Shown piece by piece: positions 8,820 through 21,680 of a stretch of 21,680 nucleotides of DNA. This stretch comes from a virus (lineage: Duplodnaviria > Heunggongvirae > Uroviricota > Caudoviricetes). The notes under the pieces are model-generated. The model was not told the origin of the DNA and did no database searches. It saw only the letters and a program-made list of their open reading frames with translations. The position numbers were made by a program, and so were the translations under genes. The stretch lies in the IMG/VR virus record IMGVR_UViG_2974628062_000001, positions 108,794 to 130,473 of that record; one strand, given 5' to 3'. Position 1 is the first letter of the stretch; each line of letters opens with the position of its first letter.

Positions 8820-8894
8820 AGCCCCAATAGCATAAAATGGCGAATGTACCTAGTTTATAATAGGTGATTGCAGGTTCGAATCCTGCTGGGGTTG
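8820..8894 (+). tRNA. tRNA-like gene with non-canonical anticodon arm (possibly degenerate Ile-TAT)
   Basis: Acceptor AGCCCCA/TGGGGTT, D arm GCAT/ATGT with GG in loop, perfect T arm GCAGG-TTCGAAT-CCTGC; anticodon arm ACCTA-GTTTATAA-TAGGT has an 8-nt loop; no encoded CCA. Confidence 0.65.
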
Positions 8895-14697: not shown

Positions 14698-14943
14698 CTT
14701 CGCTACTCTGCGCAATGTTACTTCACAGTATGTGAGAAAAGCTCTGTACGCCTCTCTGAGCGCCTTTCAGGGGTTGGCACGTCCAACCACCCTAGGACCC
14801 TCACGAAAGGCCGTTAGACGCGAATTTCACGCTGTGTAGTATCTGACGGACCGTTGGGAAACCATGGAAAACAGCAGGTCAGACAGCGTTTCGCTATATA
14901 TGCAAGGTTGTTGAATAACTCCGGGCTGTCACTCTCTGGTGAC

Positions 14944-14952
14944 TGTGGATAA
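14944..14952 (-). promoter_or_regulatory. perfect DnaA box
   Basis: TGTGGATAA in the repeated 13-mer CTGTGGATAACTT. Confidence 0.5.
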
Positions 14953-15238
14953 CTTCTTTTACCAAGTCGTTACCAAAACACGCCGACACAGGGGTTGACA
15001 TTCTTTAAAAATCATGCTCCCAGGGAGAAGCCGGCCAATTAGGTAAAATTTTGGTAAAGAACTTCAGAAAAGCTTGACACTGCTAGAGAGTTCCTGTATT
15101 TCGCGCACACTCGCACTCGCTCCGTGTGATGGGAGCGGCCCAAAAGCTACGCTGAGTAGCGACACGCCGAAGACATGCTAACTAAAAGTAGTTTTAGGCC
15201 GCTGACCTGCGGAAACGTACTTTTTCGGGGTTAGGGGG

Positions 15239-15268
15239 TTCCGAGCACTCGGAAACGTCGCCTAATGT
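15239..15268 (+). promoter_or_regulatory. promoter P1 of right block
   Basis: TTCCGA-18-TAATGT followed by GTCGGAAC. Confidence 0.5.
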
Positions 15269-15329
15269 TCTCTGTGTCGGAACGGAACGGCGGAACGGGA
15301 AACCGGGAAGTTGGGAAGGGAAGACAAGC

Positions 15330-15358
15330 TAGACACGCAAGACCGACTCTGATACAGT
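15330..15358 (+). promoter_or_regulatory. promoter P2 of right block
   Basis: TAGACA-17-TACAGT followed by CGGAAAC. Confidence 0.6.
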
Positions 15359-15433
15359 CGGAAACGCGCCGGAGGAAAACCCGAAAGGGCCAGTACAAAG
15401 GAACGCACTGGCAACACATTGAGAACTAAACAG
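15335..15433 (+). promoter_or_regulatory. rRNA-operon-leader-like segment (boxB-like hairpin plus boxA-like motif)
   Basis: CTGATACAGTCGGAAAC, CCGGAGGAAAACCCGAAAGGG..AGTACAAAGGAA, TTGAGAACTAAACAG match blocks I recall from Streptomyces rrn leaders; needs BLAST confirmation. Confidence 0.7.
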
Positions 15434-15781
15434 TGGGATTCAGAAACACATTACGCACCTAGAGCGCTAAAGCGTCCCTTGCCTGAACTTTGGGGAATAC
15501 GCCAATACATTGTTAGCGCGAATCGGTATTCTCGGCACTTTGCCAGAATTAGCGAAAAGACATTCTCTCCCTGCGCAGTGTGAGCGCATATCGAATGTGG
15601 CGGATATCCGGGCGGTAGACCGGGTGTGAATATCCAATCCGAGTAGCGAAATTCAGCGGGTGTTTTGTTTATTGGTCAATGGTGCGCCGTGTCCCGATTA
15701 TCTAGGGACTGTGGCTTTAGACGCTTACCCTTTCGAGCGTCTAGTGTCCACAAAGGAATTAGGGAAGAAAGTCAGGAAATC

Positions 15782-16117
15782 ATGACCACTGCCAAGGTTG
15801 CCAAGACTGCCACCCGCGCCCCCCGCAAGACTGCGGCGCGAAAGGCTGTCAGTGCCTCTCAGACGACCGTTTCCACGGTTGAGGTAGACGACCCGCAGAA
15901 CACGGCCGGTTGGACGTTCACGCGCCCCGTGGGGGCCGCTGAGTTCGTCTCTACGGGTGAGGGTCCCAAGCTGGAAAAGCTCACCCCCCGCGCGCTGGAG
16001 AACCTTACGGAACTCGCAACGGAAGGAAACACGGACTCCGCGCGGAAGTACTGGATTCGCGTGCTGTCCCGGTACGGCGTCACGGTGCCTTTCGTGCCGG
16101 TTGCCGATTCCGAGTAA
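15782..16117 (+). CDS. first gene of right block; Lys/Ala/Arg-rich histone-like N-terminal tail (111 aa)
   Basis: AGGA SD, ATG 15782; TTAKVAKTATRAPRKTAARKA; GC-rich host-like codons. Confidence 0.8.
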   Translation: MTTAKVAKTATRAPRKTAARKAVSASQTTVSTVEVDDPQNTAGWTFTRPVGAAEFVSTGEGPKLEKLTPRALENLTELATEGNTDSARKYWIRVLSRYGVTVPFVPVADSE

Positions 16118-16204
16118 TCGCATTCCGCAAAACAACTGAATAGCAATTCCACCCAAAACAAAACCTCCCTAATTCCTCTGCGGACACTAGAAAGGAGAAA
16201 ACAA

Positions 16205-16699
16205 GTGTTCCGACTTTCGGTGAATGGCAAAACCTACAATCCGACTTCCGTTAAGGACTTTTGGCCGCGTGCCAATCGTTCGGACGGATACGACGGAAGT
16301 TGGGTCGAATTCCCGGATTTCTATTACTGCGTTTGGATGACCATTGACGGTAAGAGTTACGCCGTTGACGGTCGCGCTACGCGGTATGAACTCGCAAAGC
16401 ACATTCGGAACGGTCGCAAGATTGCGGCCCAACATCCGGACGTGCCGTTTTCCATTGGCTATCAGAAGATTTGGACAACCCGCCGGGAATTGCTTTGTCC
16501 GTGGTGTGGTGTCCGGCCGGACCAATGGGAATGGGACTGTGACGGACAGTTCCCCATGTCCACATGTGGCAGCGAACAGTGCGACAAGTTGAATCGCTGC
16601 CAAGGGTGCGGACGTGACGGGGAAGCGCACATTAACCACTTGTGCGATTCCTGCTATGAATCGGAATACAACCGGCCCGTTCCGGGGCGGCGAAAGTAA
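16205..16699 (+). CDS. hypothetical protein with C-terminal multi-Cys Zn-binding region
   Basis: AGAAAGGAG SD, GTG start; CPWC, C-x4-C, CQGC, H-x4-CDSC. Confidence 0.8.
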   Translation: MFRLSVNGKTYNPTSVKDFWPRANRSDGYDGSWVEFPDFYYCVWMTIDGKSYAVDGRATRYELAKHIRNGRKIAAQHPDVPFSIGYQKIWTTRRELLCPWCGVRPDQWEWDCDGQFPMSTCGSEQCDKLNRCQGCGRDGEAHINHLCDSCYESEYNRPVPGRRK

Positions 16700-16777
16700 T
16701 TCCAAGCTGTAGGGATACCGGGCCGGTAGGGAAGAAATTCCCTACCGTGCCCGTATCCACACAGAAGGGAAAGCACA

Positions 16778-17254
16778 ATGCGTGGATTCAACCCGACCAA
16801 ACCGATTACGTGGGACAACTACGCGGTAAAGGTCGATTTCTTCACAAGCGACCGGCCGAATCTCGAAAGGACAGAGTATTTCGGTTCGGCCGGTGAGTTC
16901 GCCGAATGGTTGGACGCATTCGACTACGGAAACGGTGACGTTTTCGGATGGACGGGTGACAGTGCAACCATGGAAGCTGTGGAGAGTTTCAGAAAGGAAA
17001 GTGAGTACGTGGCAATTCCGGAGTTCATCACGGAATACAACACGAACGACGGTTCTTCGGAAATCATCGGGGCAGACCAGTTTCACAATCTGCGCCGGAT
17101 GTTCGCAAAGGACCGTGCGAATTACCGGATTCACCGCCACTTTGCGGATAACGCAAAGGTCTATTCGGTAATGTTCATCGGAAACGGTGAGCCGACACTT
17201 TCAACCTACGTTTGGCACGTGCCGTTTGGTGCCGACGAATTGCCGATTTCCTGA
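16778..17254 (+). CDS. hypothetical protein (158 aa)
   Basis: AGAAGGGA SD. Confidence 0.82.
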   Translation: MRGFNPTKPITWDNYAVKVDFFTSDRPNLERTEYFGSAGEFAEWLDAFDYGNGDVFGWTGDSATMEAVESFRKESEYVAIPEFITEYNTNDGSSEIIGADQFHNLRRMFAKDRANYRIHRHFADNAKVYSVMFIGNGEPTLSTYVWHVPFGADELPIS

Positions 17255-17288
17255 AAGGGAAGTCACAAGCGAAAGGGGGTGAGTACCT

Positions 17289-17321
17289 ATGCGGCGTAAG
17301 CGTAGGCGCAAATTACCCTAG
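17289..17321 (+). CDS. Arg/Lys-rich micro-ORF MRRKRRRKLP (10 aa)
   Basis: SD GAAAGGGGGTGA is one mismatch from full anti-SD complement GAAAGGAGGTGA; Leu is encoded by TTA. Confidence 0.55.
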   Translation: MRRKRRRKLP

Positions 17322-17409
17322 GCATTAAGCCAAGCTAGCGGGATTTCAGTTCCGGGCATTCTCTGAAAAGGGAATGTCCGGGCGAATGTCCAACTAGAAA
17401 GGTGGCGCT

Positions 17410-17595
17410 ATGCGTCAAACGGTTAAGTACGCCCGTGTTCGTGCAATTCAGGACCCGGACCGTACTAAGGACAATCCCGGTATTCATTACGGGGACAATG
17501 CGGCGGGGGCATTTCGTTTGCCTCTTGACGCGTGGCTTTCTCTGTTCTTCAACACTCGCACCACTCGGGGCGCAATTGTCCGGGCGGGTGAGTAA
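17410..17595 (+). CDS. hypothetical protein (61 aa)
   Basis: AGAAAGGTGG SD. Confidence 0.8.
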   Translation: MRQTVKYARVRAIQDPDRTKDNPGIHYGDNAAGAFRLPLDAWLSLFFNTRTTRGAIVRAGE

Positions 17596-17960
17596 TGGAG
17601 TTCAGGCGACGCGCATACGGCATTGTTGGCTATCTAGCCAATTGGGAGGGTTACGGAACTTCCCACGGGCACTACACAGAACATGCGGAATTCTTCGCAA
17701 ATCTGAGTGGCGCAAAGCTTGAAATGTATACCCGCTCAAGAGGTTACGGGTATCTCTACCCGCTCACGTTCAATGACTTTGAAGAAATTACCGGGGTCAA
17801 GGAACGTGAGTACGTCGAAACTCCCGGAACGTGGGATGAGCAATACATGACTCTGCGAGTGATGTATTACGACGATTCGGGAAAGCTCACATACTCCGAT
17901 GAACCTAAGTACACGCTGACAATCGGTCCGCGTGGCGGAGTAAGGACGAATGACGGTTAA
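17595..17960 (+). CDS. Tyr-rich hypothetical protein (121 aa)
   Basis: TAATG overlap. Confidence 0.8.
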   Translation: MEFRRRAYGIVGYLANWEGYGTSHGHYTEHAEFFANLSGAKLEMYTRSRGYGYLYPLTFNDFEEITGVKEREYVETPGTWDEQYMTLRVMYYDDSGKLTYSDEPKYTLTIGPRGGVRTNDG

Positions 17961-18040
17961 TGCGTCAAGTCGTTGTCAGTGCGGAGTCTGACAGCGGCCT
18001 AATGCATTGAAAGTCTCAATGCAGGAAAGGGGAACACATC

Positions 18041-18220
18041 ATGCGTACCGCTACGGTCAACGGTCGTCCGGGCATCATCGTTGCTCAGAACGGCGGTAAG
18101 GACGTTCCGGCTACCCGCGTGTTCGTTCTGTTCGATGGTGACGACTCCGCCGAGTCTTCCGCCGGTTGGTTCGACGTTCACAGCGTGCTGCCTACGGGCA
18201 TCGTTGCCGTGACGTTCTGA
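18041..18220 (+). CDS. small beta-rich hypothetical protein (59 aa)
   Basis: GAAAGGGG SD; MRTATVNGRPGIIVAQ...VAVTF; host-like codons; missed by ORF track. Confidence 0.8.
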   Translation: MRTATVNGRPGIIVAQNGGKDVPATRVFVLFDGDDSAESSAGWFDVHSVLPTGIVAVTF

Positions 18221-18324
18221 CGCGTCTAGGGGAGGGTCTGAGCGACTTTCAGACCCTCCCCGGCCCGGTTGCCCAACCAAGCTGAGAACGGCCGTTAGAA
18301 CGGCACTGAGAGGATTTTTGTACC

Positions 18325-18549
18325 ATGGCACGTACCAAGTGGGAGATTCTGGAAGCGCGGGCCGAAAAGCTGCGTAAGGAATTGACCGAATTGGAAGACT
18401 ATATGCGGGGAATGGAAAACACCCCGGATAACGTCAAGTGTTCGGGGTGTGGTGAACAGTTCCGCGTGAATGCCGATTTCGCGCGGCATTTCAAGATTCC
18501 AAATGAGCAATTGCTCAATACGGGATACTGCCCGAACAACCCGCGATAA
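18325..18549 (+). CDS. coiled-coil plus Zn-finger-like protein (74 aa)
   Basis: GAGG SD; CSGC...FARH...C. Confidence 0.78.
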   Translation: MARTKWEILEARAEKLRKELTELEDYMRGMENTPDNVKCSGCGEQFRVNADFARHFKIPNEQLLNTGYCPNNPR

Positions 18550-18559
18550 GGGGCGGGTA

Positions 18560-18802
18560 ATGGAAAAGTGCAAGAATTGCGGTGAGTCGATTACCTACGC
18601 TTACCGTGAATGGTGGGATGAGAACGACGATAATGCGTGCCCTAAGGGTGAAACGCATTTCCCGTTCTTCCGTACAACGCTTGCGCCTACTCCGGTCGTT
18701 CCGACAATGGGACCGGTTGCTAAGTGGCGCAAGAATGGTTCGGGACGATTGGTTCCCCTAAAGGGGAAGCGTTCCGCTCCGCGCAAGCTAGTTACAGACT
18801 GA
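18560..18802 (+). CDS. Zn-finger-like protein with basic tail (80 aa)
   Basis: AAGGGG SD; CKNC...C-x5-H. Confidence 0.75.
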   Translation: MEKCKNCGESITYAYREWWDENDDNACPKGETHFPFFRTTLAPTPVVPTMGPVAKWRKNGSGRLVPLKGKRSAPRKLVTD

Positions 18803-18882
18803 CGCTTATTCGTCCGGGCATTTTCAGTGGGGAGTCTGAAAGTGTCCGAATGCTCTAAGGGTTAGGGCAGGAAAGGGAAACA

Positions 18883-19317
18883 ATGGAGATTCGCAACGTG
18901 ACCAATCCGAGCAACATCGGAACGGCCATTCTCCGGACTTCCGAAAAGTGGGGAGACAACATCACTTCCCGTGGCATCACTTCCAACATGCGCCGGAATG
19001 GTGCCTACAACGCGCGTGTAAGGCTTGTCGCGCATTCTTCCTTTGGGGAGGGTGTTCGGGAGTCTGCAAGCGGTAGGCGCGGCCCGTGGGTTTGCTGGCA
19101 CGCGCAGCGGGATTTCTTCCGCGCGCTTTTCGAGATTGAGCCGAACGCAACGGTTCGAACGGGTCTCGGAAAGGGTGGCGTTACCTATACCGCCCGGAAT
19201 TTCGAAAGCACGTTTCCGGGCACGTACAACACGAATGCGGGAAGTCTGTATTACCCGCGTGAGTTCGGCTCACTGTGTGGTCATGGTGGCCGGGAAGCTG
19301 TAGCCGGTACTTACTGA
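18883..19317 (+). CDS. phage hypothetical protein (144 aa)
   Basis: GAAAGGGA SD. Confidence 0.82.
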   Translation: MEIRNVTNPSNIGTAILRTSEKWGDNITSRGITSNMRRNGAYNARVRLVAHSSFGEGVRESASGRRGPWVCWHAQRDFFRALFEIEPNATVRTGLGKGGVTYTARNFESTFPGTYNTNAGSLYYPREFGSLCGHGGREAVAGTY

Positions 19318-19396
19318 GTGCCGAATGTCATTAGGGAACTACCGGGCAAGCAATTGTCCGGCCCTATTGGCATTCCCCGCTTAGAAAGGCGACGCA

Positions 19397-19648
19397 ATGG
19401 CCATTGTCCGAATCATTGACGTTCCGGAGAATCGACGGGACGCGCATACGGATGTGGAAATGGAAGTAAGGGGATTCCGTGGCGCTACTGCGGTAATCGC
19501 AAAGGATTTGCGGCGTAGCGCTTCCGACAGTTTCCGTCAAGAGGTTATGCGACTTTGGGCGGAACACGGAAAGTCCGGCGGATTTGCCGTGAGAAACGGT
19601 AAGCACACGGATTCATGGGTTATGTTCGAATACTCGGAAGGGAAGTAA
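19397..19648 (+). CDS. hypothetical protein (83 aa)
   Basis: AGAAAGG SD. Confidence 0.8.
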   Translation: MAIVRIIDVPENRRDAHTDVEMEVRGFRGATAVIAKDLRRSASDSFRQEVMRLWAEHGKSGGFAVRNGKHTDSWVMFEYSEGK

Positions 19649-19652
19649 TACA

Positions 19653-19910
19653 ATGCGGGAAGTCATGAGGGTCTGTCTTTCTGAGGACGGAACGGAATTC
19701 CTGCTGTATTCCGAGAATGGCGAGACTCTGGAAAGGGTCATTGCCGTTAAGGACTTTGCCGCTGTAGGCGAATCGGCAAAGGAAGCTGCGGAAATCGCGT
19801 TTCGTGACGACTACGCGGAGCGCAATGGACGGGATTTCATGTCTTGCATGGGATATCAGGACTGCCGTCCGGGTCTGTGTGATGAGCATTACGAAGGGCA
19901 GGAATTCTGA
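19653..19910 (+). CDS. hypothetical protein, C-terminal C-x5-C-x4-C-x2-H (85 aa)
   Basis: GGAAGGGA SD. Confidence 0.78.
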   Translation: MREVMRVCLSEDGTEFLLYSENGETLERVIAVKDFAAVGESAKEAAEIAFRDDYAERNGRDFMSCMGYQDCRPGLCDEHYEGQEF

Positions 19911-19911
19911 T

Positions 19912-20277
19912 ATGCGCTGGATTCCCCTTGGCTTGAATGCGTTCCGAGAGATTCAGTCGGGCGCAACGGAAACCGTGACGGACGATTTCGACGGAACGAC
20001 CCTGTATTTCGGGGAAGTCATTTCGGCCGTCCGGCGCATGGGTGACCGAATGTACATTTTCGAAACGTGCTTTCGGGAAGCGCTCGAAAATGTGGACGTG
20101 ACGGAAATTCGGCCGGGTGACGTTATCTGGCATTGCTTGGATGACGGACCGGTTAAGAGTCACGAACCGTATTGCGCATATCCGGAAACCGAAGAACTCG
20201 TTTCTTGGGAATCCGGAATGTCGGACCGATTCGGAAAGCCTCAAAAGCTGGAAATCCTTCGGGGTGGTCAGTTCTGA
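19912..20277 (+). CDS. hypothetical protein (121 aa)
   Basis: AGGA SD, ATG one base after upstream stop. Confidence 0.78.
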   Translation: MRWIPLGLNAFREIQSGATETVTDDFDGTTLYFGEVISAVRRMGDRMYIFETCFREALENVDVTEIRPGDVIWHCLDDGPVKSHEPYCAYPETEELVSWESGMSDRFGKPQKLEILRGGQF

Positions 20278-20387
20278 GATTGTGCAATCTCGGGGGGTAC
20301 ACATACGTTGGTACAAAAAACGGCTGTGTGCTCCTCAGACTGTCCAATCAAGCGGGTTGGGTAGTTGGCCTAGGGAAGGGTCTAAAA

Positions 20388-20810
20388 GTGTCTCAGACAC
20401 GCACACACGGGCACGGCGGGTACTTTGGGTGCCGTGACGCAAGTTGCCCGAACGTTCCGGCCGTTCATGGTTCCCGCACGCGTTGCCGTTGTGAGGGATG
20501 GCAGACACAGAACAAGGGGAAGTGCACGGCTTGTGATTCCCCCGTTTTGGCGGATTGGGAATGGGACCTCTTGACGGGCGGGCAGGAAAACGGCGGGTTT
20601 GTGGAGAGTGAGGGAATAAAGGAATACCCCATTACCATTATCGCCTATAGGGGAAAGAACAAGGTAACGGTAAGCGGTATTCGGGAAGACTCGGTAAGCG
20701 CAAAGGTGGATAGGGAGGGTAATTGCAATCTGTCCTTTGAGTTCAGGGATTACCCGGACCGAATCGGATACATTCCGTGCATCGATTGGTACGAAACGGA
20801 GTGCGAATAG
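20388..20810 (+). CDS. Cys/His-rich hypothetical protein (about 140 aa)
   Basis: GGAAGGG SD before in-frame GTG; multiple C/H pairs; start uncertain. Confidence 0.65.
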   Translation: MSQTRTHGHGGYFGCRDASCPNVPAVHGSRTRCRCEGWQTQNKGKCTACDSPVLADWEWDLLTGGQENGGFVESEGIKEYPITIIAYRGKNKVTVSGIREDSVSAKVDREGNCNLSFEFRDYPDRIGYIPCIDWYETECE

Positions 20811-20941
20811 ACTACCTACTTTCTGCAAGAAAGCACTAACTAATAGTTAGTGTTCTAGATGGGTAATGGTTGGGCTATTCAGGCCCAATCTGGCCGCATT
20901 TCCATTAGAATTCGCGCAAAAACAAAGGAAAAGGGGCAGAA

Positions 20942-21025
20942 TTGAAGGCTTTTCTGTTCATTACCGGGCTTTTCCTTATCTCTGCCTATATGGTGGGGGT
21001 ATTGCCCGGCGGTATTCAGTGGTAA
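20942..21025 (+). CDS. possible hydrophobic micropeptide (27 aa)
   Basis: AAGGGG SD, TTG; MKAFLFITGLFLISAYMVGVLPGGIQW. Confidence 0.45.
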   Translation: MKAFLFITGLFLISAYMVGVLPGGIQW

Positions 21026-21073
21026 CCCATATACGGGTACCCCTATATAGGGGGTATATAGAAGGGGGTATGC

Positions 21074-21367
21074 ATGAACCTTGCATATCAGTATATCGAT
21101 AGGCCCAATAGCAAGAGTGGCACTGTATATGGTGCATATCTCTTGTATATGGGTACGGATACAGTGGTTGTCCCCGCAATGGGTAGGGATATCCATAAGC
21201 TGTGGGCATATGTGGGTAATGGCAATATGGGTATTGGCAAGGAAAGGCTTACTCACTTCCTGCAATTGCCTGCATTCACCTTGAACCCCGCCCAATACAA
21301 CACCACAGTTACACAATACGTTATGAGTAAGGATAAGCCTTTCAATATGCCTAGCGTGAAAGGATAG
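21074..21367 (+). CDS. hypothetical protein (97 aa), AT/TA-rich coding
   Basis: GAAGGGGG SD. Confidence 0.7.
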   Translation: MNLAYQYIDRPNSKSGTVYGAYLLYMGTDTVVVPAMGRDIHKLWAYVGNGNMGIGKERLTHFLQLPAFTLNPAQYNTTVTQYVMSKDKPFNMPSVKG

Positions 21368-21398
21368 CGAGGAAATTCCCGAAGAAATTACGCGGGAT

Positions 21399-21554
21399 TT
21401 GAATAGCGATATAGTGCAGGGTACTGCCCTTACTCTAAAGGGTGTCCTTTGTCTAATCGTTGTTATTCCCGTCGTGATTGCCGTCATTTTCTTTGTCGGT
21501 TTCGGGGCTTTCGCAATTCTCGGTGGAATTCTTCAGGCAATTGGAGCGCTGTAG
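21399..21554 (+). CDS. small membrane protein (about 51 aa)
   Basis: long hydrophobic run VLCLIVVIPVVIAVIFFVGFGAFAILGG; start uncertain. Confidence 0.55.
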   Translation: MNSDIVQGTALTLKGVLCLIVVIPVVIAVIFFVGFGAFAILGGILQAIGAL

Positions 21555-21680
21555 AAAGGAATTCTTTTAGGGGACCCGGCGATTAAATTCAATGGGTCCC
21601 CCGGAATTATTTTCAATTGCGATTGCAATTGTTTATGGGCGCACTATTTGCGAATGCGAATTCGATTTGCCGGCCCATAT

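Follow-up and report, generated by a model that had tools for sequence, protein, structure and literature searches.

A phage-borne copy of the Streptomyces rrn promoter-leader region and its proposed role in antitermination

The DNA analyzed here (the window) is a stretch of 21,680 nucleotides (nt) that forms the final 21.7 kb of a 130,473-bp virus record (IMGVR_UViG_2974628062_000001, record positions 108794-130473). The closest relatives of this virus are lytic Streptomyces phages of the Stanwilliamsviridae/Loccivirinae (Annadreamy, Limpid, Gilson, Faust, and others). At window positions 15239-15433, within a gap of ~1.4 kb without annotated genes, we found an element that resembles the start of a Streptomyces rRNA (rrn) operon. 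An earlier note, made from the letters of the sequence, had read this element as a copy or mimic of the host rrn promoter and leader, and that reading held on leader homology, on conservation in related phages and on stable hairpins in most of the downstream gaps that were folded. We consider it probable that the element is a diverged, phage-borne copy of the promoter-proximal part of a Streptomyces rrn operon, made up of tandem promoters and a nut-like module, and that it acts in cis to bring about N-independent antitermination of the rrn type.

Likeness to Streptomyces rrn leaders

All of the motifs named in the earlier note were present where it had placed them when we read the sequence directly. 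The note had compared them with Streptomyces leader sequence. A first set of host leaders, collected with a degenerate form of the phage 15-mer and hence motif-selected, carried the 15-mer 164-204 nt 5' of the 16S start and the upstream blocks of the note verbatim. For an unbiased set, the first 286 nt of 16S were searched against three complete genomes of Streptomyces plus 30 more from the same genus. The leader sequence given in the note proved to be real: all 29 of the 16S leaders with enough flank (14 genomes) contained the full module, its blocks in the same order (CCCGGAG, a hairpin, RAAGGAA, ~11 nt, and TTGAGAACTCAACAG) and 124-212 nt upstream of 16S.

We then searched both strands of the 130,473-bp genome using nhmmer and a profile built from 13 of the unbiased leaders. 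This yielded a single significant match, at 15346-15433 (27.5 bits, E 1.9e-7), and thereby the alignment to rrn leaders that the note had named as a check on its idea. A profile lacking the 15-mer matched at 15346-15403 (E 5.2e-6), the next best matches all had E > 1, and the earlier leader set, used as a profile, gave the same single-site outcome. In a pairwise comparison with one host leader, 69 of 82 aligned positions were identical (84%); the phage copy shows one insertion of 4 nt and, past the start region, a deletion of 17 nt. As this is the sole significant profile match in the genome and the pairwise identity reaches 84%, we take the likeness to host rrn leaders to be homology, not chance. 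The parts of the element are as follows.

15239-15268, + strand: predicted promoter P1, with TTCCGA (15239-15244), an 18-nt spacer and TAATGT (15263-15268)
15239-15254, + strand: near-perfect palindrome TTCCGAG-CA-CTCGGAA overlapping the P1 -35, read from the sequence
15261-15283, + strand: P1 -10 and initial transcribed block CCTAATGTTCTCTGTGTCGGAAC, identical in the prophage-like elements L152, L249, L274 and L290
15284-15329, + strand: GGAA-rich inter-promoter spacer, conserved in relatives having P2 and absent in Sham
15330-15367, + strand: predicted promoter P2, with TAGACA (15330-15335), a 17-nt spacer, TG (15350-15351) and TACAGT (15353-15358)
15369-15403, + strand: leader block 1, consisting of CCGGAGG, the hairpin CCC-GAAA-GGG (15380-15389) and AGTACAAAGGAA (15392-15403), which aligns to host CCCGGAGG-hairpin-AGTACAAAGGAA
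15404-15418, + strand: spacer before the 15-mer, 15 nt here and 11 nt in host leaders
15419-15433, + strand: core 15-mer TTGAGAACTAAACAG, containing the 3' half of the boxA equivalent and a boxC-like stretch (15423-15433)

The phage element and the Streptomyces rrn leader thus share one block order (TCTGATAnAGTCGGAAACGC, CCGGAGG, hairpin, AGTACAAAGGAA, TTGAGAACTnAACAG) with 84% identity over the 82 positions, and both have tandem promoters with GGAA-rich spacers between them. The phage spacer at 15284-15329 resembles the purine-rich spacers between tandem host rrn promoters; being of low complexity, it was left out of the homology count. The phage copy differs from the host leader in having no rRNA downstream, in the 17-nt deletion, in a 15-nt rather than 11-nt spacer and in a diverged boxA 5' half. 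The earlier note's statement that no 16S follows agrees with Rfam, which detected no rRNA in the window; besides a chance microRNA match in the gap, its sole match was a tRNA at 8821-8893. Since there is no rRNA in the window, and protein genes follow from 15782 onward instead, the element is a copy of an rrn leader and not an rrn operon.

The sequence past the 3' boundary of the homology also has a host counterpart. The core motif recurs in the host's 16S-23S spacer, before the 23S 5' end. After AACAG, the phage continues with TGGGA, like that spacer copy (TGGAC) and unlike the 16S leader (CGTGCC), and the spacer copy is therefore the likely source of the TGGA continuation.

The likeness at P2 extends to single bases. 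Its extended -10 leads into a host-like discriminator and start region, GTCGGAAACGC, and the predicted start lies near 15364-15366, with GCGCCGGAGGAAAA at 15366-15379. Across TCTGATAcAGTCGGAAACGC, 19 of 20 positions equal those of the host's last rrn promoter; where host rrn promoters have a -10 of TAGAGT followed by CGGAAACGC, the window has TACAGT followed by CGGAAACGC (15353-15367), and most relatives have the host-identical TAGAGT, their P2 being the host-identical CTGATAGAGTCGG. P2 is the sole strict sigma-70-type promoter match on the + strand between 14000 and 21680. P1 appears to behave as a genuine promoter, in that its hexamers are kept in relatives (TTGCAx; TAnnGT/GAGAGT) while the sequence of its spacer varies. 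The palindrome at 15239-15254 is a possible operator, and prophage-like elements sharing P1 also have a palindrome in the -35/spacer region. The earlier note had described both promoters as followed by GTCGGAA. The motif is indeed present twice (15277-15283 and 15357-15363), but in different registers, overlapping the -10 of P2 and lying 9 nt past the -10 of P1.

Downstream of P2, leader block 1 occupies the place of boxB in rrn leaders, with a hairpin ahead of boxA. It follows the CCCGGAG-hairpin-RAAGGAA pattern of host leaders, with a short hairpin (3 bp). Between CCGGAG and AAGGAA, we counted 39 different stems across 73 distinct copies of the module. No consensus structure emerged from RNAalifold when 36 copies were aligned with MAFFT, as stems of unequal length fell out of register, and folds of individual sequences against shuffles were used in its place. 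Folded singly, the 73 copies had a mean z of -2.2 relative to shuffles, and 62% had p <= 0.05. A hairpin that is kept while its stem varies is the pattern expected of a structural RNA element at the rrn boxB position.

The following spacer and 15-mer hold the counterparts of boxA and boxC. In Bacillus subtilis, a hairpin precedes a boxA-like sequence, AUGAUCUUUGAAA, that binds NusB (PMC13753749). In an alignment made here, host GUUCCUUGAGAAC agrees with AUGAUCUUUGAAA at 10 of 13 positions, and we therefore read GUUCCUUGAGAAC as the probable boxA equivalent and the subsequent CUCAACAG as a boxC-like part. By alignment to the Escherichia coli and B. subtilis boxA, the boxA equivalent of the phage spans ~15414-15424, so that its diverged 5' half is ACACA (15414-15418), the last five bases of the spacer. 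Where host leaders have the 11-nt spacer GCGTCCGTTCC and then TTGAGAACTCAACAG, the phage has a diverged 15-nt spacer and a 15-mer with one mismatch to that of the host (14 of 15 positions identical); the 130-kb genome contains the extended motif a single time. The retained part, GAACUAAACAG (15423-15433), corresponds to the boxC of the mycobacterial literature, where it is a NusA site. The earlier note had called this last block boxA-like, which stands for the 3' half of the boxA equivalent inside the 15-mer; the 15-mer as a whole is not simply boxA, and what has been kept is boxC-like.

The element is present in nine Loccivirinae of three genera. Over the aligned part, Gilson-type copies reach 90-93% identity to the host, and they carry GAACUCAAUAG where this phage has GAACUAAACAG, while Kenrey and Emma1919 have the host-identical GGTTCCTTGAGAA, with GTTCC at the boxA 5' half and GGTTCC retained. 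Sham has lost P2 and the inter-promoter spacer and retains the hairpin, AGTAC.AAAGGAA and the 15-mer, and in Faust and Beuffert the position of the hairpin is taken by different ones. That Sham keeps the RNA elements without P2, that Faust and Beuffert have swapped hairpins and that 39 stems occur in 73 copies together point to the RNA elements, not the promoter, as the target of selection. The 17-nt deletion is common to every Loccivirinae copy and suggests that the ancestor of the group acquired the element in a single, old capture.

Proposed antitermination and competing explanations

The rrn leader and spacer of E. coli contain a boxA whose RNA loads NusB-S10 onto polymerase carrying NusG; with NusA and other factors, this polymerase becomes resistant to Rho (PMC13753749, PMC2724277). 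The module of the phage (CCGGAGG, hairpin, AGUACAAAGGAA, boxA equivalent, boxC-like stretch) is likewise promoter-proximal, its boxA/boxC-like RNA lying ~55 nt past the predicted P2 start. We propose that host RNA polymerase would initiate at P1 or P2 and that the boxA/boxC-like RNA, on emerging ~55 nt into the P2 transcript, would load the host rRNA antitermination factors (NusB-S10, NusA, NusG, and associated proteins), making the polymerase fast and termination-resistant. The modified polymerase would then cross a structured, untranslated leader of 348 nt, an obvious target for Rho, and go on to transcribe ~6 kb of small genes and strong hairpins up to the genome end. We infer promoter activity, start site, Nus-factor binding, antitermination, read-through and early timing from the sequence and its relatives. 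The features of the proposed transcript beyond the module are as follows, the helices being those of a predicted fold.

15434-15781, + strand: untranslated, conserved, structured leader RNA of 348 nt, from a consensus fold of nine phages
15454-15459/15681-15686, + strand: long-range helix H1
15522-15565/15593-15676, + strand: helix H3
15602-15611/15620-15635, + strand: helix H4
15691-15695/15705-15709, + strand: helix H5
15710-15726/15735-15752, + strand: helix H6, an invariant 17-bp hairpin ahead of the ribosome-binding region
15782-21680, + strand: right-end block of small genes (open reading frames; first gene 15782-16117), collinear with Annadreamy genes 251-265 and running to the end of the genome record

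The consensus fold of the leader, computed with RNAalifold from the nine phages, reached -59.1 kcal/mol with 76 pairs, 27 of them showing compensatory changes; 100 column shuffles gave -31.0 +/- 4.2 kcal/mol (z -6.75), and none of the 100 was as good. The nine sequences are a small sample of related phages, several of them nearly identical, and we treat the structured leader as a lead. Helix H1 starts 20 nt past the module and encloses ~220 nt, a predicted arrangement that recalls the leader-trailer helix of rRNA. Beyond the first gene, very stable hairpins, mostly without U-tracts, occupy five of the intergenic gaps that we folded (16700-16777, 17255-17401, 17961-18040, 18221-18324 and 19318-19396). 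The fold in 16700-16777 reaches -47 kcal/mol, and others have a GAAA-capped stem of 13 bp near 17352-17381 or a stem of 14 bp at 18229-18261; the many downstream hairpins of the earlier note thus find support between 16700 and 19396. Pfam and PHROG gave no informative match for ten downstream proteins, nor did a PDB sequence search with the product of the first gene return a match.

Besides the homology to host leaders, the signs of selection on the RNA elements and the precedents in T7 and B. subtilis, three lines of argument favor antitermination in cis. First, a hairpin, a boxA equivalent and a boxC-like part stand in rrn order, after host-like promoters and before a transcript that appears to demand processivity, given the structured 348-nt leader, the hairpins in five gaps and the lack of any other strict + strand promoter to the genome end. 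Second, the module is universal in host 16S leaders and its core is present again before 23S, as is the rrn boxA in E. coli and B. subtilis. Third, it recurs at the heads of long operons, among them the early block of phage Hydra and TraB-type transfer operons (see below).

Several observations weigh against this reading. The P1 -35 is weak in this phage. The window hairpin is minimal, with 3 bp and a GAAA loop (z -1.9, p 0.057 against shuffles). The 5' half of boxA has diverged from the host's GUUCC to ACACA, and this region is also variable among copies in conjugative elements. Measured against the E. coli boxA consensus GYTCTTTAANA (PMC5725501), the window sequence ACACATTGAGA agrees at 6 of 10 specified positions and the host's GTTCCTTGAGA at 8 of 10; we found no actinobacterial consensus in print. 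Because of the diverged 5' half, binding of NusB-S10 to this leader is uncertain, and because the part retained is UUGAGAACUnAACAG, with the boxA 5' half diverged, the factor bound could be NusA instead, or something else. We found no demonstration of rrn antitermination in Streptomyces in the papers that we read. Most of the downstream hairpins lack U-tracts, which one report describes as required by mycobacterial RNA polymerase for intrinsic termination (PMC3993855); for that reason, these hairpins may be stabilizers or processing sites rather than terminators.

We regard as possible, but rather unlikely, that the element is a promoter and 5' untranslated region cassette without a Nus role, in which an rrn-like, strong and growth-coupled promoter is joined to a leader RNA that serves in stability, in RNase III or RNase E processing or in binding some other host factor. 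The almost host-identical -10 and discriminator region would fit such a cassette, as would the lack of conservation of the boxA 5' half in this phage and in many mobile-element copies, and the conserved long-range helix just past the module (15454-15459/15681-15686) is like the leader-trailer helix of rRNA that RNase III cuts. Across lineages, however, no part is less conserved than the promoter: other promoters stand before the leader in Likavirus and the conjugative elements, and P2 is missing from Sham, yet the leader RNA blocks persist. Moreover, the most conserved stretch is the one common to both rrn copies (pre-16S and pre-23S), at the site of the antitermination boxes in other bacteria.

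An explanation that overlaps with antitermination, and that we hold to be improbable, makes the structured RNA of ~300 nt the main product, a stable non-coding RNA as in the case of rRNA, with the protein genes secondary. In its favor are a consensus fold far above the column shuffles, compensatory pairs in several helices and a closing long-range helix right past the module. The fold draws, however, on those nine related sequences, the single-sequence fold of the 348-nt leader is unexceptional (z -0.45), no Rfam family matched, the Likavirus and conjugative-element copies have different and shorter downstream sequences, and there is no terminator between the RNA and the first gene.

Less probable still is a decoy, whereby abundant leader RNA would titrate NusB-S10 or NusA off the host rrn operons as part of host shut-off. 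Tandem promoters before a copy of the factor-binding region, in a lytic phage, could serve this end, but each genome has one copy only, temperate phages and conjugative elements, which must not cripple their host, use the module too, and its fixed position at operon heads argues for action in cis. Strongly disfavored, finally, is a functionless relic of host DNA acquired by illegitimate recombination: the sequence is clearly host-derived, but three genera have kept it, with conservation that is selective for the motifs and with compensatory changes in the hairpin, its capture is old (the 17-nt deletion is in all Loccivirinae copies), no flanking 16S or other host sequence is present, and similar captures have recurred in other lineages.

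The use of host Nus factors by phages is textbook knowledge for lambda and has been shown for T7, both in E. coli. Antitermination of the kind proposed here would rest on the same principle as in T7, in which a boxA downstream of the early host promoters (A0-A3) is functional (Savalia et al. 2010, as cited in PMC3709561): both are cases of a lytic phage with an rrn-type signal behind strong host promoters, and no lambda-N-type protein is described for the T7 signal. T7, however, has a short boxA of the E. coli type only, whereas here the start region, hairpin, spacer and boxA/boxC-like stretch are all host-homologous, the host is an actinomycete and the role is a predicted one. The lambda nutL and nutR sites are also promoter-proximal RNA signals of the early transcript that use host Nus factors (PMC2724277), as we propose for the phage element. 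They differ in having boxA before boxB and in needing the N protein; the window element does not have this lambda-type order (boxA, then an N-bound boxB hairpin), its hairpin preceding the boxA equivalent as in rrn leaders, and no N-like protein was found by Pfam and PHROG among the ten downstream proteins.

A further parallel is the nut-like site of Mycobacterium tuberculosis, which also belongs to an actinobacterial rrn leader. The conserved stretch of that leader includes GAACUCAAUAG, the sequence of the Gilson-type copies, as against GAACUAAACAG in this phage. NusA binds specifically to the boxC region of M. tuberculosis rrn (Arnvig 2004 and Beuth 2005, as cited in PMC2724277).

Copies in other phages and conjugative elements

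Using a real host leader as the query, we retrieved 85 Streptomyces phage records from two subfamilies. Besides the Loccivirinae, these were Arquatrovirinae of ~50 kb (Hydra, Caliburn, Lannister, Danzina, Joe, and others), in which the copy lies on the minus strand, 0.6-0.7 kb from the right genome end. The Hydra copy heads a 13.6-kb early/replication block of 26 leftward genes, including those for DNA polymerase III alpha, a dNMP kinase and ThyX. In both phage groups, the homology stops at ...AACAG and is followed by TGG(G/A)A. The Arquatrovirinae copies are without the 17-nt deletion, for which reason they appear to be a separate lineage.

A scan of bacterial genomes with the motif plus TGG recovered the 16S-23S spacer copy of the host and also many full-module copies at chromosomal loci outside rrn operons. 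These precede operons encoding DUF6284, small membrane proteins (PycTM-like or DUF6303), DUF2637 and DUF6251, with NUDIX and ArdA nearby, and large FtsK/SpoIIIE TraB-like proteins at the loci are homologous between three of them. NCBIfam gave no match for the conjugative-element proteins; on Pfam evidence from a handful of loci, we read these loci as probable conjugative or integrated elements. In one group on Streptomyces chromosomes (L132, L141, L143, L147, L153, L157, L158, L170, L175 and L205), the full module stands at an operon head with palindromes, possible operators, 5' of it; the genes encode DUF6284, PycTM-like/DUF6303 membrane proteins and DUF2637, with FtsK/TraB-like translocases further downstream. 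These look like transfer or spread operons of the actinomycete integrative and conjugative element (AICE) type with an rrn-type leader.

A second group is prophage-like, comprising L152, L249 and L133 on chromosomes and L259, L265, L274 and L290 among IMG/VR contigs (63-95 kb, 61-65% GC), one of them with an ArdA antirestriction gene. All share the leader module and a common downstream continuation, TGGATATAGACGCACGG..., and L133, L259 and L265 have a diverged block at the P1 -10/start position. In L152, L249, L274 and L290 (61-65% GC), the 23-nt P1 -10/start block is identical to that of this 49% GC phage and runs straight into the leader, and this identity suggests that the promoter-leader cassette has been exchanged between unrelated elements. 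Judged by these copies, the rrn-leader module is common to several kinds of Streptomyces mobile element and not peculiar to this phage, and elements with the module probably borrow the rRNA transcription machinery of the cell.

The concept has precedent in lambda and T7. Our literature searches turned up no earlier account of an rrn-like leader in phages or conjugative elements of Streptomyces, and searches with the motif strings returned unrelated primers only. A broader idea, which we put forward tentatively, is that the module is a portable, N-independent antitermination cassette that was captured more than once from the host and exchanged among lytic Loccivirinae, ~50-kb Arquatrovirinae, prophage-like elements and TraB-type conjugative elements, in each case downstream of the first promoter of the element's longest operon. 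If this were true, hijacking of the rRNA antitermination complex would be a general strategy of actinobacterial mobile DNA, a complete host-derived rrn leader module at early-operon heads would extend phage use of Nus factors to Actinobacteria, and the Loccivirinae cassette would additionally drive a conserved structured RNA of ~300 nt. It could explain how long, hairpin-punctuated operons are expressed from a single promoter, the natural copies would serve as a ready mutant series for rrn antitermination in Streptomyces, and the cassette would offer a compact part for processive expression of long Streptomyces gene clusters. The "empty" 1.4-kb gap of these phage genomes would be flagged as regulatory RNA, not junk.

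The core motif was also present in 56 IMG/VR contigs, in several high-GC ones shortly after a consensus promoter. One set of ~52-kb contigs (L275, L278, L286, L267, L295 and L300; 61-63% GC) has TTGACA...TAGAGT, ~25 nt, TTGAGAACTAAATAGTGG and a GC-rich hairpin, a lambda-like order of boxA and then hairpin, with a CAATAG (mycobacterial-type) variant of the motif; there seems to be another phage group that employs the core motif and does without the upstream block. In two Actinoplanes loci (L136 and L140) and three viral contigs (L257, L294 and L296), the core motif lies directly 3' of tRNA genes and may be a boxA-type signal inside tRNA or rRNA transcription units.

Genome setting

The GC content of the window steps from 0.47-0.49 to 0.53-0.55 at ~15 kb, and the gene next to the gap begins at 15782. 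We considered whether the rrn-like element belongs to a long terminal repeat and rejected this, as the direct terminal repeat of the record is only 789 bp and the element is single-copy. A hidden open reading frame is also unlikely, since those overlapping the element (15231-15419 on the minus strand, 15265-15429 and 15419-15583 on the plus strand) are all short; one such overlapping coding sequence is annotated in Beuffert only, though the nucleotide sequence of the region is kept among relatives. Four wastewater runs labeled "RNA-Seq cDNA" were rejected as expression evidence because they are probably DNA, with contigs on both sides of the gap.

Upstream of P1, the gap contains two further promoter-like sites, one with TTGACA at 14995-15000 and the other with TTGACA at 15074-15079, a 17-nt spacer and TATTTC at 15097-15102, the latter conserved in Sham. 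The stretch 14940-15139 is conserved even among relatives without the rrn-like module. Given these two extra TTGACA sites and the conservation around them, the gap may contain three or four tandem rightward promoters.

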